Under the pieces are notes generated by a model. It was not told the DNA's origin. It made no database searches and saw nothing but the letters and a program-made list of their open reading frames with translations. Source: Ahniellaceae bacterium (lineage in GTDB: Bacteria > Pseudomonadota > Gammaproteobacteria > Xanthomonadales > Ahniellaceae). Taken from it: DNA of 64,000 bases. Of this stretch, positions 9,520 to 39,734 are shown one piece after another. The first letter of the stretch is position 1, and every line of letters begins with the position of its first letter. Location: positions 577,961 through 641,960 of the forward strand of contig JBGAHD010000004.1 of NCBI GenBank assembly GCA_044226395.1, given 5' to 3'. The translations under genes were made by a program, and so were the position numbers.

Positions 9520-9564
9520 TGGTGCGGGATTCGAACCCGCGGGCGGTTGTCCGCCATTACCGTG
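9520..9564 (-). other. tRNA 3'-end-like fragment (T-arm + ACCA), possible att/integration remnant
   Basis: Minus strand reads ...GGCGGACAACCGCC-CGCGGGTTCGAATCCCGC-ACCA. It has a T-loop and a CCA tail but no matching 5' half. A CCAGATC-T-GATCTGG palindrome lies immediately downstream. Confidence 0.35.
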
Positions 9565-34131: not shown

Positions 34132-35496
34132 ATGAACGCGCCCGACACCGGCTCACCCACGGCGGCGCCGGTGTCGGCGATCGCGGCGCTGACGTATCCG
34201 GTCGCGACCGCGGCCTTGATGGTCAGCGGCATGCTGATCTTCCTGCAGATCCTCGCGGTTGGCGTGATCCAGATCGGTGGCATGGTGCCGCGCTTCTTCG
34301 GCGCGCCGCTCGCGGGCACGATCGGCGAGATCGCGGTGAGCGCGATCGGTTATCTGGTCCATGTCGTCATTTGGATTTGCCTGTATCGCTACGGCTTCGA
34401 GGTGCTGTTTCTCAGCGCCAACGGCCGTCGTCAGCCGCCCGAAGTCGTGGGCCTGGTGGAAGGCGAGGTGGCCAATCGCCATGTCTGGCTGCAAATCGCC
34501 TTGATGTTCGCCTGCGTCATCGTGGCGCGTCACGCGGGCACCTCGATGGGCTTGATCGTAGCGGTGGCGCTGGGCGCGCTGATGCCGGCCGCGGCGATCA
34601 CGCTGACGGTGACGCAGAGCCTGGTCGCCGCCATCAATCCGCTGCAATGGGGGCGCGCCTTGGGCGTCCTCGGCCCGCGTTACGTCGCGCCCATGCTCGT
34701 GGCCATGATCATGGCCCCGCTGACCACGTTCGCCATCGACTGGATGCCGAAGACCGAGCCCTACGTCGCGGGCGTGATCATCTACTACGCGTCCGCGCAT
34801 TTCGTGGTGATGCTGGGTTTTCATCTGATGGGCCTGGCGCTGCATGCCGAGGCCGCGCGTTTGCATTTTCAGGTCGACGCGAAGACATTGCCGGCGCATC
34901 GCTTGCGCGTGGACGAAGATCCGATCCTGCGACGCGCCGAATTGCTCGCGCGCGGCCATGATCTCGCCGCCGCGGCGGCGCTGCTCGAGGATGCGCTCAA
35001 GCACGGCGGCGGCATCGCGATGCATCATCGCTATCGCGAATACCTGACGCGTCTCGGCGATCGCGATCGCCTGCGGGCGCATTCATCCACCTTCATAACC
35101 TTGCTGCGCGCCACTCACGGTGATAGACCGGCACTGAAACTACTACTGGACTGCAGGTCAGAAGACTCCACCTTCTTACCAACAGAGGTTGAAGACAGCA
35201 CTGCCCTAATCATCTCCCTCGCAAAGTCAGGGAACAACGCAGCTGCATTGTCCGCGTTTGCAGATCTTCAGAACTCTATTCCGCGTAGCACCAAGACAAT
35301 GCTCTGCGCATTGACTCTCGCACAGGAATTTCTATTCAAAAACCAACGCATCGAGGATGCAATACGCCTATCTCAACAAGCGAAGCAGACTGCAAAATCC
35401 ACAAATTGCTCCAGTCCCGAAATCCTTTCATTGATAGACGCTGTAGAAGAGCAACTCGCGAAGAATCGTGGTGAGTCTAATGAAAGTGAAGGATAA
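34132..35496 (+). CDS. polytopic membrane protein whose C-terminal ~135 aa are encoded by low-GC foreign DNA (chimeric 3' end)
   Basis: Multiple TM helices in high-GC DNA up to ~35085. The reading frame then continues into ~48% GC sequence encoding a TPR-like helical tail. Confidence 0.5.
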   Translation: MNAPDTGSPTAAPVSAIAALTYPVATAALMVSGMLIFLQILAVGVIQIGGMVPRFFGAPLAGTIGEIAVSAIGYLVHVVIWICLYRYGFEVLFLSANGRRQPPEVVGLVEGEVANRHVWLQIALMFACVIVARHAGTSMGLIVAVALGALMPAAAITLTVTQSLVAAINPLQWGRALGVLGPRYVAPMLVAMIMAPLTTFAIDWMPKTEPYVAGVIIYYASAHFVVMLGFHLMGLALHAEAARLHFQVDAKTLPAHRLRVDEDPILRRAELLARGHDLAAAAALLEDALKHGGGIAMHHRYREYLTRLGDRDRLRAHSSTFITLLRATHGDRPALKLLLDCRSEDSTFLPTEVEDSTALIISLAKSGNNAAALSAFADLQNSIPRSTKTMLCALTLAQEFLFKNQRIEDAIRLSQQAKQTAKSTNCSSPEILSLIDAVEEQLAKNRGESNESEG

Positions 35497-36523
35497 GAAA
35501 TGGCGATCAAAAAGACGAATGAAGGTCATTCGTGCAAAAGAGAGGAAACGGGCACTTAGAACGCGCCGCCAGAAAGCAAACAAAAGACGCGGCTTGGGCC
35601 TGAAGCGTCGGTCTTGGACTTTGACCTCCATAAGAGTCCAGATGCCGGAGCAGATCGCATTAGATCTTCACCCGAACCATGGAGACGTCTGCAAGACCAT
35701 TCAGGAGATAAGGTCAGCAGTTGCGAGGTCAAAACACGTCCAGCTTGACTTCTCGCGAACCAAAAAGGTGATTGCTGGAGGGATGTTAAGAGTGTATGCA
35801 GAACTACACGCACTCGCGACACTTTTCCCTCGAGTCCGATTCACATGCAAGCCACCTAAGGATGATGTTGTTGATCAAGTTCTACAGCACTTGTCCCTCT
35901 ATGATTTCTTTGGTTACACCTCGAACACCAAGCCGACCAGATCAGATGTAGTTTCCTGGAAGACTGCTTCATCAAACATAGTAGACGGTGTTTTAGCGGG
36001 TCAGCTCCTAGAGACCTATCATGGTCTGCAGAAGGAGCGCGCGAAGGCCCTCTTCAGAGGCACAACAGAAGCGATTTCCAACGTCATCTATCATGCATAT
36101 CCTGAATCGGTTCTTCCTGATGCAGCCAAATGGTGGATGTTCTGCCGAGAAGACGAGGACAAATTAGTGGTTGCAGTTTGTGACAGAGGAATTGGAATTC
36201 CAAGGTCACTGCCGGCCCGATACCCGCGAGAAGTCTGGGGTCGACTTGTCGATAGATTTAGCTTTGGGAGTCATCATCGAGACGGAGCCTTTATTCGCGC
36301 AGCTTTGGAAATGAGGAGATCTAGGACTGGCAAATCGAATCGAGGCAAGGGCCTTCACGACGTTGTTTCGGTGGCGAGATCTTGCGAGGGATCGAGAGTA
36401 TTCATATTCAGCAACAGGGCTTGCGTTACATATGATTACCTCGGAGAGAAAATCAAAGTATCTAACTTCAAGAGGTCAATTGAGGGCACGCTGATCCTCT
36501 GGTTTCTACCATTGCAGAAGTGA
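35477..36523 (+). CDS. GHKL/histidine-kinase-like ATPase (RsbW/SpoIIAB-type HATPase_c) with highly basic N-terminal tail
   Basis: K/R-rich first ~45 aa. N-box EAISNVIYHAYPE, G1 VAVCDRGIGIP, G2 GKSNRGKGLHDV, G3 GSRVFIFSN. Start ambiguous (GTG 35468, ATG 35477, ATG 35519). Confidence 0.5.
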   Translation, partial: LMKVKDKKWRSKRRMKVIRAKERKRALRTRRQKANKRRGLGLKRRSWTLTSIRVQMPEQIALDLHPNHGDVCKTIQEIRSAVARSKHVQLDFSRTKKVIAGGMLRVYAELHALATLFPRVRFTCKPPKDDVVDQVLQHLSLYDFFGYTSNTKPTRSDVVSWKTASSNIVDGVLAGQLLETYHGLQKERAKALFRGTTEAISNVIYHAYPESVLPDAAKWWMFCREDEDKLVVAVCDRGIGIPRSLPARYPREVWGRLVDRFSFGSHHRDGAFIRAALEMRRSRTGKSNRGKGLHDVVSVARSCEGSRVFIFSNRACVTYDYLGEKIKVSNFKRSIEGTLILWFLPLQK

Positions 36524-36530
36524 GATCGCC

Positions 36531-36854
36531 ATGAAAGGAAAAGAAACTACAATCAATATTGGAAAGACCTTTAACCGCTTCCCCGCTGGCAGGACGGAGA
36601 AGGATGGAATAGGGAGCGGCGAGGAGTTCAGGAAAAAGGTCCTGAGTACCGCACTTGGCGACTATGAAGTTCTTAACATCGAAATGGACGATACTCTGGG
36701 ATATGGATCTTCGTTCCTAGAAGAGGCCTTCGGCGGGCTCGTTCGTGACGGATTCTCCGCATCTGATCTACGACGCAGAATAAGAATACTGTCTGAAGAC
36801 GACTCACTTAAAGTCGAGATATTTGGGTACATTGACGAAGCGAGCAAATCATGA
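36531..36854 (+). CDS. STAS-like / DUF4325-like small protein (putative partner of the GHKL ATPase)
   Basis: 107 aa. EVLNIEMDD...GYGSSFLEEAFGGLV motif as I recall it for DUF4325-type STAS-like domains. 8-nt gap after the upstream gene. Confidence 0.45.
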   Translation: MKGKETTINIGKTFNRFPAGRTEKDGIGSGEEFRKKVLSTALGDYEVLNIEMDDTLGYGSSFLEEAFGGLVRDGFSASDLRRRIRILSEDDSLKVEIFGYIDEASKS

Positions 36855-37396
36855 GCGACCTCATCGCATGCTTCGATATCTTGATCAAGTTGGTTTCTCC
36901 AATTGTTACCTGGTCGCTCGTTGTCGCTGGGTGGGAGATCATTGGCCGCCAACAGGACCAACGCGAGCACATCAAGTTCCTTGCATCCAGCGCGCAGGAC
37001 GTCAGACAAAGGGTAAGGAGGCTAGCCGAGGATGCAGCAGAATTTCATATGAAAGAGAGATTTGAGCCTAAGCATGCTCATCTCCTTTTGCGCACCCTTA
37101 AGCAAATAGCTTCGGACATCACAGTGTTGGGCAAGGCACACCTTGCCGGGGAGAACTACTTGGGCGCGATTGTAAGCCTGAGACAAGCTGTTACCGGGAG
37201 CAACTTTTCTGAAGCATCGTTTAGCCAAAGGTCCGCAGACGACTTGACCGTAAGAAGCATCGAGATTAGCGCTGATGGCTTGGATTTCCTTCTTGCAAGA
37301 TCAATCAATGCAAAGCTCCTTGGCGGCGTCCAAAGACTTAGCATCTGGAACGTTGCGCTGTCCATGTTCAGTTCATCGTCGCCCACAAACCGCTGA
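36851..37396 (+). CDS. hypothetical membrane-anchored protein
   Basis: ATGA overlap with the upstream gene. N-terminal hydrophobic helix LIACFDILIKLVSPIVTWSLVVAGWEII followed by ~150 aa of helical soluble region. No recognisable family. Confidence 0.4.
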   Translation: MSDLIACFDILIKLVSPIVTWSLVVAGWEIIGRQQDQREHIKFLASSAQDVRQRVRRLAEDAAEFHMKERFEPKHAHLLLRTLKQIASDITVLGKAHLAGENYLGAIVSLRQAVTGSNFSEASFSQRSADDLTVRSIEISADGLDFLLARSINAKLLGGVQRLSIWNVALSMFSSSSPTNR

Positions 37397-37540
37397 GTAA
37401 ATACGATTGATGGCATTGAGTTCTTGGCTGCGGCCAATAGATGATGCTTGTTTCGCATGCGCGAACCCAAGATGAGGCCCTCCGTAGGCGGGAGGGCTCT
37501 CATTGGCATGCCGAGTTGCTATTGAAAAGTCGAAGTTGCG

Positions 37541-37909
37541 CTAGTTCGGACACCCCGCATTGATCCAATCGATCAGCGGTTGAATCTGCGCCGCCGTCCA
37601 CGGCCCCGTGCCATCGGCCGGCATCTGCCCATAGCTGCCGTTGGGCCCAAACAGCGGGCCGACGCCTTGCAGCGCCTGCACGATGTTCGAGTTCGCGGCA
37701 TTGCCCGGCACGCAGACGCGCACGGGCGGGCTGATGTTGGGCACATTGCCGGTGATGAACTGCTGATACGTGAGCACGTTCCAGAACGCGTGATGCGGCG
37801 CGCTGGCGATCGAGGTGTTGTAGTACGCGATCAACTTATTCATGTACGCCTGGAATTGCGCGTAGTTCTGGATCACGGCCGCGGCGGTATTGGCTTCGGT
37901 GGTGGTCAT
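37541..37909 (-). CDS. hypothetical protein (122 aa)
   Basis: Only the C-terminal part of listed ORF 37541..38407 has a protein-like composition (MTTTEANTAAAVIQNYAQFQAYMNKLIAYY...). The upstream part is R/S/T/P-rich frame noise overlapping the real 603-aa gene. Confidence 0.5.
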   Translation of the reverse strand: MTTTEANTAAAVIQNYAQFQAYMNKLIAYYNTSIASAPHHAFWNVLTYQQFITGNVPNISPPVRVCVPGNAANSNIVQALQGVGPLFGPNGSYGQMPADGTGPWTAAQIQPLIDWINAGCPN

Positions 37910-37922
37910 GTGGTTTCCCTGA

Positions 37923-39734
37923 TCATCGCGTGGTGGAAGGTTTGGCCGGATCGGCGGCGTCGTCGCTCTTGGCGTCCGGCTTGCCGGCGTCGTCGGCGGA
38001 CACGCCGGCATCCGGGTCGAACACCGCTTTGAAGCGCGTCTGCGACACTTGCACCTGCTGCGCGTTGGCCGCGGTTTCGGGCGCGCGCGCGGGCTGATTG
38101 CCCAGGATGAAACTGAAGTCCGCGCCCAGCGTCGACTGCGCCACGGAATGACAGCCCATGCAGCCGCCCATGTCGTACGAGGCCTTGAGCGAGCCATTGG
38201 CGTTGAGCACGTAAGCGTTCTGCTGATACAGCGTGCCCGAACTCGTGTAGTTGGTCGGCGCGCCATTGCTGGCCACGCGGCCGTTGAAGTTCTGCAGCGT
38301 GTAGTTGGTTTCGACCACGCTGTTGGCCAGATAGAACGTCGCGGCGTTATGCGGGTCGCTCGGGTTGTTGACGATCTGCGTAACGCTGAACGGATACGCC
38401 TGGACATTGACCAGCTTGTAGTACTGCCACGGCGAGTTCTTAATGCCCTTGCTTTGCGAATACGTCGCGATGGCCGCGTGCGCTTGCTGATTGGCGGTGA
38501 CGATCGGCGGCGGAATGGCGCGATCGCGCTGATTGACGCAGATGCTGCCGCCCGTGGGCACGCCGGTCTGACCGGCCGTGTTGTTGTAGAACAGATGCGG
38601 ATTGTTCTTGGTGTTGCAGTAAGGCTGACCCGCCACCACGCTCACTTGTGGATTGTTCGGATCGTCCTTGTACGTCAGCGCTGGCGAAGTCGCGGTGCCC
38701 GAGGGATTGATCACCTTGCCGTTGACGTCTTCCACGGCCACCGGCTTGCCGTTGACCACGGTCAGCAGATTGTCGGCTTGCTCGAACGTGGCGAAGACGA
38801 AGGCCGGCGCGGTCGGCGTCTTCTGAATGATGTGCAGCGCCACCAGGCCCCACACGGCTTCGCGATAGCAAGGGCCGCCGCCGCTGGCGGTCTCGTAGTA
38901 ACGCACCGTGGTCGAGTAGAAGCGCTGCGAGCTTTGCTCGGCGGCGGTCAGCGGCCGGAAGGCGGCCTTGGTCTCGATCGTGCCCGCGGGAAAATTGATG
39001 TAGGGCGACGCCGGCGGAAACGTGCCCGTGTTCACCGCCTTGATGAAGTTCTGCCGCGCCGTGCGGCGTGGCGCGTTGGCGACTTCATACCAATACTTGT
39101 TGGCCGCGACATAGGTGTACTCGACGCTGTTGGCCTTGGCCATGAAGCGGATCAATTGCGGCGCCGCGTTCTTGGGCTGCGCGGCGGCGGGATTGATGCC
39201 CGCGTACATCGAATCGAGTCCGATCTGAGTCACTTCATCGAGATTGATCCACGCCGGTTGCGGCGGCGGAGTCTGACCACTGCACGCGGGCACCACGCCA
39301 TTGGTGCCGACGCCGGCGTTGTAAACATAGCTCGGCGGCGTGTTGTAGCCATACGTCGGCGGTCCCGCGCTGTAGCCCGCGGGCGGCGACGAGGCACTGT
39401 TGGTGCCGGGGAAGATTTCGATCTTGGCGCGATACGTGTGCCACACCAGCGGCCCCGTGCCCGCGCCGAAGTTCTGCGTGGTGTCCGGCACGTCGCGCTG
39501 ACCGGCCTTGGCCGGCCAATTCAAGGCGATGAACTCCTGCCACGCGAAGGTGGCGGCGGTGGCGAGGCTGGCGTTCGGCGCGCCGCCGGGAATGTCCTTG
39601 GGCACGACGGGCGAGATAGTGATCGCGGCGGCGGCCGAAGCGTCATCGCTCGACGCGGCGGGCGGATCGTCGGCGCCAGCGATACCGGGCACGACGACGA
39701 GAGTGGCACTGAGGAATGCACGGATGAGTTTCAT
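37923..39734 (-). CDS. secreted hypothetical protein with single CXXCH motif
   Basis: Signal peptide MKLIRAFLSATLVVVPGIAGA. 603 aa, rich in G/N/P/T. CMGCH near the C-terminus. Lies 13 nt upstream of the 122-aa ORF, so a likely operon. Confidence 0.55.
   Translation of the reverse strand: MKLIRAFLSATLVVVPGIAGADDPPAASSDDASAAAAITISPVVPKDIPGGAPNASLATAATFAWQEFIALNWPAKAGQRDVPDTTQNFGAGTGPLVWHTYRAKIEIFPGTNSASSPPAGYSAGPPTYGYNTPPSYVYNAGVGTNGVVPACSGQTPPPQPAWINLDEVTQIGLDSMYAGINPAAAQPKNAAPQLIRFMAKANSVEYTYVAANKYWYEVANAPRRTARQNFIKAVNTGTFPPASPYINFPAGTIETKAAFRPLTAAEQSSQRFYSTTVRYYETASGGGPCYREAVWGLVALHIIQKTPTAPAFVFATFEQADNLLTVVNGKPVAVEDVNGKVINPSGTATSPALTYKDDPNNPQVSVVAGQPYCNTKNNPHLFYNNTAGQTGVPTGGSICVNQRDRAIPPPIVTANQQAHAAIATYSQSKGIKNSPWQYYKLVNVQAYPFSVTQIVNNPSDPHNAATFYLANSVVETNYTLQNFNGRVASNGAPTNYTSSGTLYQQNAYVLNANGSLKASYDMGGCMGCHSVAQSTLGADFSFILGNQPARAPETAANAQQVQVSQTRFKAVFDPDAGVSADDAGKPDAKSDDAADPAKPSTTR

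Follow-up and report, generated by a model that had tools for sequence, protein, structure and literature searches.

What does a compact three-gene cassette do when it sits in a low-GC islet of an otherwise GC-rich chromosome, and from where in the microbial world was it drawn? This question is raised by a 64,000-nucleotide stretch from an Ahniellaceae bacterium (assembly GCA_044226395.1, contig JBGAHD010000004.1, positions 577,961 to 641,960 of the forward strand), which we call the window and in which positions are counted from the first nucleotide. A first-pass annotation, made from the nucleotide sequence, had described the three open reading frames (ORFs), here termed g1, g2 and g3, as encoding a GHKL ATPase with a basic tail, a STAS-like partner and a small membrane-anchored protein, and had proposed a partner-switching or defence-like module. 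All three ORFs are present where that annotation placed them, tightly packed on the + strand; the ATGA overlap it reported between g2 and g3 is likewise present (36851-36854), but the spacer between g1 and g2 measures 7 nucleotides (nt; 36524-36530) and not eight. Our analysis leads to a reading, to which we assign about an even chance, in which the cassette is a VapKSC-like membrane-effector module operating through a full chain from kinase to STAS protein to g3, probably in phage exclusion. The parts of this chain differ in strength, and the evidence for each is presented below.

The product of g1 is divided into three recognisable parts. A model calculated with AlphaFold2 (AF2) from 42 homologues (predicted local distance difference test score, pLDDT, 91.2; predicted template modelling score, pTM, 0.82) comprises a helix (residues 2-42), a beta-alpha domain (51-165) and an alpha/beta sandwich (185-344). 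The helix accounts for the Lys/Arg-rich tail of about 45 residues that had been noticed at first pass: 24 of the first 45 residues are K or R, and two are D or E. This property is family-wide, the median K+R content being 36% in the first 45 residues against 14% elsewhere, with at least 25% reached in that segment by 152 of 168 g1 relatives. The region of about 120 residues that follows exists as described but is not of unknown nature, being a STAS domain. The remainder was correctly recognised as a HATPase of the RsbW/SpoIIAB type: it matches Pfam HATPase_c_2 with an E-value of 2.4e-5, slightly below the gathering score, as do 29 of the 42 relatives, and the family keeps invariant residues in the N-box (E197, N201, H205), the G1 box (D235-x-G237-x-G239) and the G2 box (R288-G289-x-G291), together with T337 and a tryptophan (W160) in the inter-domain linker. 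All 42 of 42 sequences keep the N-box asparagine N201, equivalent to N218 of the kinase CapK discussed below, in the context E197-A-x-x-N201-x-x-x-H205-A. The best structural matches were to SpoIIAB and RsbW bound to SpoIIAA/RsbV-type partners; when PDB sequences were searched with the g1 profile, the only match was a 22-residue N-box segment of RsbW, and in PHROGs g1 matched phrog_3364 (E 1.4e-43), a family of unknown function. Neither Pfam nor the AF2 model revealed a helix-turn-helix (HTH) in g1, the N-terminal extension consisting of one long basic helix only. The protein is best called a Ser-protein kinase of the SpoIIAB/RsbW type, a better label than that of a mere ATPase.

The partner encoded by g2 was proposed to be a STAS-like DUF4325 protein, and Pfam bears this out (40.8 bits, the cut-off being 23; E 1.8e-10). 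Searched alone against PDB sequences, g2 found nothing meaningful. The protein ends about 15 residues past the DUF4325 match. In the family alignment of 56 sequences, P18, R21, G30, S61, F62, E65 and G69 are invariant, and the family motif GYGSSFLEEAFGG (G-Y-G-S-S61-F-L-E-E-A-F-G-G) holds the invariant Ser61, located at the usual phosphorylation site of STAS proteins and hence the candidate phospho-acceptor. This serine is the sole candidate in some members, because position 60 is R or P there. The domain identities of g1 and g2 are clear, and the catalytic and acceptor residues are intact in the window copy. That g1 is the kinase and g2 its STAS substrate is, in our judgement, highly probable.

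A separate observation concerns possible fusions: g2 matches only positions 338-439 of the 441-position profile phrog_5816, which suggests that some phage proteins are long fusions ending in DUF4325, possibly kinase-STAS fusions.

The combination of a GHKL Ser-kinase fold with a STAS antagonist is also found in SpoIIAB-SpoIIAA, RsbW-RsbV and SiaB-SiaC. However, the kinases of those pairs are single domains of about 140 residues that sequester a sigma factor and are accompanied by PP2C phosphatases, whereas g1 is 347 residues long and includes a STAS domain as well as the basic tail. The cassette encodes neither a sigma factor nor a PP2C phosphatase, and neither turned up among the genes immediately next to it in 66-136 related loci, where Sigma70_r4_2 matches were confined to three LuxR/GerE-type proteins. 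Of the partner-switching logic invoked at first pass, the pairing of kinase and STAS protein stands, while its anti-sigma component is an analogy only, no sigma factor or PP2C phosphatase being present.

Closer counterparts are offered by two systems reported by Chambers et al. (EMBO J 2026, PMC13373217). CapK, an HTH-STAS-GHKL kinase activated by single-stranded DNA (ssDNA), phosphorylates a conserved serine of CapS, a STAS protein with a winged HTH (wHTH) that represses a downstream immune operon; CapK-CapS pairs regulate CBASS, Bub and Thoeris operons. In the vapKSC operon, VapK (STAS-GHKL) is proposed to phosphorylate Ser48 of VapS and thereby to release the PIN toxin VapC. VapKSC provides about 2 logs of protection against phage Bas42, for which the kinase site, VapS Ser48 and the toxin are all needed; activation by ssDNA is proposed for VapK as well, and the authors describe the whole as a toxin-antitoxin (TA) system responding to DNA damage (PMC13373217).

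Using VapK and VapS sequences taken from the supplementary models of that paper, we aligned the g1 family profile to VapK over 248 columns covering both domains (hhalign, 95.6%, E 1.1e-8). The cassette and VapKSC have three genes in the same order, of which the first encodes a STAS+GHKL kinase and the third a presumed effector, and both are horizontally mobile and defence-associated. VapS resembles g2 as a DUF4325 STAS protein of about 110 residues (62.7 bits on the Pfam model) with a conserved serine at the phospho-site, its phospho-Ser48 aligning to S60 of g2, one residue from the invariant Ser61. The two systems differ in their third gene, a PIN nuclease in VapKSC and here a single-pass membrane protein of a novel family; in the extra 42-residue Lys/Arg helix, which VapK lacks and which is conserved throughout the g1 family; and in that identity is only about 18% and the cassette family is largely prophage-borne. 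CapK-CapS likewise have a STAS+GHKL kinase followed by a STAS substrate that, in the Cap pair, is phosphorylated on a conserved serine, but the N-terminal HTH of CapK and the C-terminal wHTH of CapS have no equivalent in g1 or g2, and where the Cap pair represses a downstream immune operon, only g3 follows here, and then unrelated convergent genes. As these systems are defined, the cassette belongs to neither VapKSC nor CapKS, because of its membrane third gene, its basic helix, the absence of the VapS inhibitory helix and the replacement of VapK F54 by Lys (the last two are taken up below); it has the sensor-adaptor core common to both. The first-pass view that this architecture is not a named system is accurate insofar as no library supplies a name, but there is now a close named analogue of which it could not have been aware (VapKSC/CapKS; PMC13373217).

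The third protein is, as had been anticipated, small, N-terminally anchored and helical, with an N-terminal hydrophobic helix that forms a single transmembrane (TM) segment. The G and W of this helix are conserved in 88% and 87% of members, respectively. Basic residues are distributed asymmetrically about it, with a median K+R of 0 before and 5 after the helix and a higher value after it in 96 of 100 members; from this we predict a topology with the N-terminus outside and the C-terminus inside. The positive-inside bias would place the body of g3 in the cytoplasm, where g2 resides. That helical body carries a conserved 'LR..vT...F' motif; in the 'phospho-Rex' version discussed below, its conserved Thr could also be phosphorylated, so that the kinase would act on g3 directly. 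Searches of Pfam, PHROGs, PADLOC and the PDB produced no relative of g3, and g3 together with 51 family members yielded no PIN match and no consistent Pfam match. A k-mer-indexed homologue search returned no protein for the single sequence and three proteins for the profile.

The triad, which we read as one operon of co-evolving genes, is strictly conserved and has been transferred horizontally, the same three-gene order recurring in about 115 independent loci, far beyond chance. A pattern scan of IMG/VR recovered 94 g1 relatives on viral contigs, and 80 of these loci were retained. Directly 3' of g1 there is a g2 homologue in 77 of the 77 viral loci in which the DNA continues, and all but two viral loci have a third + strand ORF of 143-273 amino acids (aa), separated by a gap of -38 to +20 nt, that encodes an N-terminal hydrophobic segment. 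Iterated hidden Markov model (HMM) searches united 61 of 65 distinct third proteins from viral loci with the window g3 in one family, the remaining four having the same size and N-terminal helix. A scan of species-representative genomes gave 38 loci, 37 of them real matches; the complete triad is present in all 37 (g3 again being detected by iterated HMM), and in every one the GC content of the cassette is lower than that of its flanks. These genomes represent Lysobacterales (Stenotrophomonas, Lysobacter enzymogenes, Rhodanobacter), Nitrosomonas, Sphingomonadales, Pseudomonas, Endozoicomonas and others, and the triad also occurs in the cultured Marinobacter phage AS1 and on a plasmid of Vibrio alfacsensis. 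An exhaustive profile search for the g1 family retrieved 5373 cluster representatives (50% identity) at E <= 1e-3 and 1663 at E <= 1e-30. A count of only 51 g1 homologues was discarded as an artefact of word filtering, given the thousands found by the exhaustive search.

The two exceptional viral loci are near-identical to each other (L052, 3462-3782; L054, 9626-9946) and have a third gene truncated to 106 aa after a 148-nt gap, the result of a frameshift in g3 or else of faulty assembly. Among the bacterial relatives of g1, one from Acinetobacter baumannii (P0033/P0055 cluster; 382 aa, 31% identity) has been seen on at least 1000 contigs, carries no annotation beyond 'hypothetical' or 'ATP-binding protein', and is a possible clinical-strain model.

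With respect to genomic setting, the triad is resident at prophage accessory and defence hotspots. The upstream neighbour is an S24/LexA-cI-type repressor (Peptidase_S24) in at least 10 of 66 viral loci, with HTH_3 or Phage_CI_repr matches upstream in further ones. On the downstream side, 12 of 73 loci have a portal gene next to the cassette and 8 an integrase gene. In phage AS1 it stands immediately behind the repressor gene opposite cro, the position that rexAB occupies after cI in lambda. In 10 loci it lies between a gpA homologue and a convergent portal gene; the gpA-gpQ interval is the old/tin defence hotspot of P2 (Rousset et al., PMC9122126). The published table of Francisella phage KIRK has the AS1 arrangement, with CI, then a 293-aa protein matching AS1, a DUF4325 protein and a TM protein, and an integrase a few genes on (PMC7924643). 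The Vibrio plasmid carries the cassette beside MazEF and an antirestriction gene, and in the species genomes it typically forms a bare islet, as in the window. The mobile, defence-like setting suggested at first pass is strengthened by 94 relatives on viral contigs and by their prophage accessory or defence positions, and the neighbourhood analysis found homologues in prophage, phage and plasmid loci, not confined to a chromosomal housekeeping setting.

Two further loci or groups of loci were encountered in this survey. In three Erythrobacteraceae genomes (L105, L107, L118) the cassette adjoins an opposite-strand gene encoding about 965 aa. UvrA-domain Pfam families were matched by three scanned neighbours, which were not traced to L105, L107 and L118; if the genes of about 965 aa are these UvrA matches, the shared insertion site suggests vertical inheritance within the Erythrobacteraceae. 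Vibrio phage vB_VhaM_VH-8 (MN497415; an 87-kb phage) bears an orphan DUF4325 gene (L124, 3001-3333) with no adjacent GHKL kinase gene; speculatively, its product may be a decoy substrate or an anti-defence protein directed against kinase/STAS systems.

For the proposed membrane-effector module we infer the following course of events, modelled on VapKSC. In an uninfected cell, the g2 STAS protein would restrain the cytoplasmic domain of g3 in an inactive state. A signal of infection or damage, most likely phage- or damage-derived nucleic acid, would activate g1 by binding to its STAS/GHKL groove and to its basic helix. The kinase would then phosphorylate g2 at Ser61, and phosphorylated g2 would release g3, which, once freed, may self-associate in the inner membrane and depolarise or permeabilise it. 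Such toxicity would arrest the cell and exclude the phage, by abortive infection or superinfection exclusion (Sie). Defence systems often use transmembrane proteins as their suicide effectors (PMC9122126). An anti-phage role for the cassette, taken by itself, we consider moderately probable.

Several observations weigh against this account. The cassette family is known here from genes alone. Comparison of g3 with known toxins and effectors detected no relative, and its single-sequence AF2 model (pLDDT 41.8) was unusable, so that no fold search was made from it; because of the lack of relatives and the unusable model, g3 is called a putative effector from its position and by analogy. PADLOC-DB v2 gave zero matches at E <= 1 for g1, g2 and g3. 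The similarity of g2 to VapS beyond their common Pfam family is weak (hhalign, 17%, E 1.4e-3). In addition, VapS possesses a 23-residue C-terminal helix (94-116) that blocks VapC, and g2 does not, these VapS residues extending past the end of the g2-family profile; any inhibition of g3 by g2 must therefore work in another way. The ssDNA-sensing aromatic residue of VapK, F54 (W68 in CapK), aligns to Lys in g1, and hence the trigger may differ; across the g1 family the position is occupied by F or Y in some proteins and by I, V, K or another residue in the rest. In the species genomes, the two neighbours on either side are mostly housekeeping genes, with a few type I restriction-modification, nSTAND and AbiEii-like genes, and an association with chromosomal defence islands is for that reason not supported. 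In the window itself, no phage genes were found flanking the islet, and a promoter scan detected no sigma-70-like promoter upstream of g1.

Position also invites comparison with classical phage exclusion genes. Lambda RexAB and P2 old/tin occupy the same places as the cassette, either after the repressor (AS1, KIRK and at least 10 IMG/VR loci) or in the gpA-gpQ hotspot, and RexAB is similar in logic too, combining a cytoplasmic sensor with a membrane protein; no sequence or domain relationship of either to the cassette was detected. RexB has four TM segments, and RexA is not known to be a kinase. A more specific version of the membrane-effector reading would make the cassette a widespread prophage-borne 'phospho-Rex', in which the kinase with its arginine-rich helix directly senses phage nucleic acid and, through Ser-phosphorylation of the STAS protein, opens g3 as a member of a hitherto undescribed class of single-pass pore-forming membrane proteins, the whole acting as a RecA-independent post-translational switch co-transcribed with cI. 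We regard this version as possible but on balance doubtful.

The same positions could be read differently. Temperate phages keep lysogen-expressed exclusion genes (rexAB, sieB, sie2009) after cI or by the integrase, and the cassette is often found directly after a cI repressor or beside an integrase; g3 has about 150-180 aa and one N-terminal TM helix, and the basic helix of g1 could bind incoming DNA at the membrane. Such features would suit a g3 that is a non-lethal, Sie-type blocker of DNA entry at the inner membrane, or a kinase anchor, with g1 and g2 tuning or localising it and the host surviving. We consider this unlikely: searches gave no sequence match to known Sie proteins, self-contained copies of the triad are also maintained in chromosomal islets, as in the window, and on a plasmid, and the kinase/STAS pair of the closest characterised relative releases a toxin (PMC13373217). 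That relative is described by its authors as a TA system responding to DNA damage, and the parallel in architecture, the MazEF genes adjoining the plasmid copy and the isolated islets among housekeeping genes would all be compatible with an addiction or stress module in which g2 is the antitoxin, g3 the toxin and g1 a damage-responsive trigger. Such a module would stabilise its carrier mobile DNA, or halt growth when DNA is damaged, and would have no function dedicated to phage defence. Strong enrichment at known phage defence hotspots, including P2 gpA-gpQ, renders this distinctly improbable as the whole explanation; moreover, VapKSC itself protects against phage, and both readings could hold together.

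Classical partner-switching control of transcription, with g1 as anti-sigma factor or anti-regulator, g2 as its antagonist and g3 as a membrane sensor, would agree with the structural matches to SpoIIAB and RsbW in complex with their partners, and CapK and CapS show that such pairs can control transcription. Yet g2 lacks the wHTH of CapS and g1 lacks an HTH; no conserved operon lies downstream, the neighbours varying by locus and being convergent here; and a self-contained triad moving among phages, plasmids and chromosomes points to an autonomous function. We hold transcription control to be very unlikely, since the cassette brings along no sigma factor, PP2C phosphatase or DNA-binding domain. 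There is, finally, the matter of whether the copy in this genome still functions. An inactive remnant of a past insertion might be expected to look much as this one does in having no mobility or phage genes around it, no detected promoter of its own and a fusion to a chimeric upstream ORF. But its three ORFs are intact and translationally coupled, every family-invariant catalytic and acceptor residue is kept, identical copies come from three independent sequencing runs, and the 17-nt overlap with the upstream ORF could supply both transcription and translational coupling; that the cassette is dead here seems to us extremely unlikely.

Attempts to name the cassette family from existing resources returned only sub-threshold histidine-kinase and anti-sigma noise from NCBIfam and only families of 'unknown function' from PHROGs, and a literature search for a defence system combining STAS, GHKL and transmembrane proteins led only to the paper on CapKS and VapKSC. 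A three-gene system reported by Rousset et al. from the P2 hotspot was set apart on its description, which gives no predicted domains where g1 and g2 have clear ones, and no PADLOC match was found. The family is accordingly unnamed in PADLOC, Pfam (for g3), PHROGs and NCBIfam. What appears to be new, judged by sequence comparison, is an exchange of effector and a new sensor appendage on the CapK/VapK phospho-switch, in a large and mostly prophage-borne family. If the membrane-effector reading is true, the GHKL-kinase/STAS phospho-switch described in 2026 for CapKS and VapKSC would be a general sensor module that feeds three or more outputs, among them a repressor, a PIN nuclease and a membrane effector. 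It would also mean a new temperate-phage defence or exclusion system at rexAB-like and P2 old/tin positions, and a new family of small membrane effectors. Marinobacter phage AS1 would then be a tractable cultured model, and the basic helix offers a testable handle on what the kinase senses.

The coordinates of the cassette and adjoining features are collected in Table 1. Public gene calls on identical contigs start g1 at ATG 35480; an alternative GTG at 35468 would give 351 aa. The composition profile of the window shows GC falling from 0.65-0.72 outside the islet to 0.48-0.51 inside it. The islet measures 2.45 kb and contains no mobility genes. Its left edge lies about 400 nt 5' of g1, within the upstream ORF, in which GC at third codon positions drops from 0.8-0.97 to 0.40-0.57 at about 35100; the last ~136 codons of that ORF are therefore foreign, islet DNA. 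The first-pass statement that the three genes are the only cargo of a low-GC island is thus right as to the foreign islet but not as to 'only', since these codons belong to it as well. The islet-coded end of the upstream ORF stays in frame, and its stop overlaps the start of g1 by 17 nt. Pfam and NCBIfam gave no match for this ORF, and its islet-coded tail had no relative across 120 related loci; we considered this tail as a fourth cassette gene and rejected it, no relative being present near any other cassette. A search for an empty insertion site found no relative of the high-GC part of the ORF in the species genomes scanned. At the islet borders, direct and inverted repeats amounted to chance-level 10-mers only. 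No integrase was found around the islet, and the only tRNA in the window is at position 9564.

Table 1. Positions of the cassette genes, their parts and adjoining features in the window.
Feature	Position	Strand	Description	Basis
Upstream ORF, chimeric	34132..35496	+	454 aa; multi-TM N-half, helical TPR-like C-half	Public gene call
Low-GC islet	35085..37540 (about)	.	~49% GC vs 65-70% GC chromosome	Composition profile
g1	35480..36523	+	STAS-GHKL serine-kinase-like, 347 aa	ORF; public gene call
g1 Lys/Arg-rich helix	35480..35605	+	Residues 1-42	AF2 helix 2-42
g1 STAS-fold domain	35627..35974	+	Residues ~50-165	
g1 GHKL kinase domain	36032..36511	+	Residues ~185-344	
g2	36531..36854	+	Single-domain DUF4325 STAS, 107 aa	Pfam DUF4325
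g2 Ser61 codon	36711..36713	+	Candidate phospho-acceptor	Invariant in 56/56 homologues
g3	36851..37396	+	Single-pass membrane protein, 181 aa; helical body, predicted cytoplasmic; proposed effector	ORF
g3 transmembrane helix	36872..36940	+	Residues ~8-30; conserved G-W	Hydropathy maximum 1.83 at residue 7
GC-rich hairpin	37472..37503	.	Between convergent g3 and 37541-37909 (-)	Minimum free energy fold of 37397-37545

The hairpin beyond g3 (arms ATGAGGCCCTCC and GGAGGGCTCTCAT) lies in a 149-nt region with a z-score of -2.2 and has no T-run; it is not among the calls of a terminator scan, and it is a possible bidirectional transcription stop. Neither of the next two genes to the right of the islet, both on the - strand, matched Pfam or NCBIfam. 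The convergent gene at 37541-37909 encodes a 122-aa protein, and that at 37923-39734 a secreted protein of 603 aa with a signal peptide and a single CXXCH motif (CMGCH) near its C-terminus.

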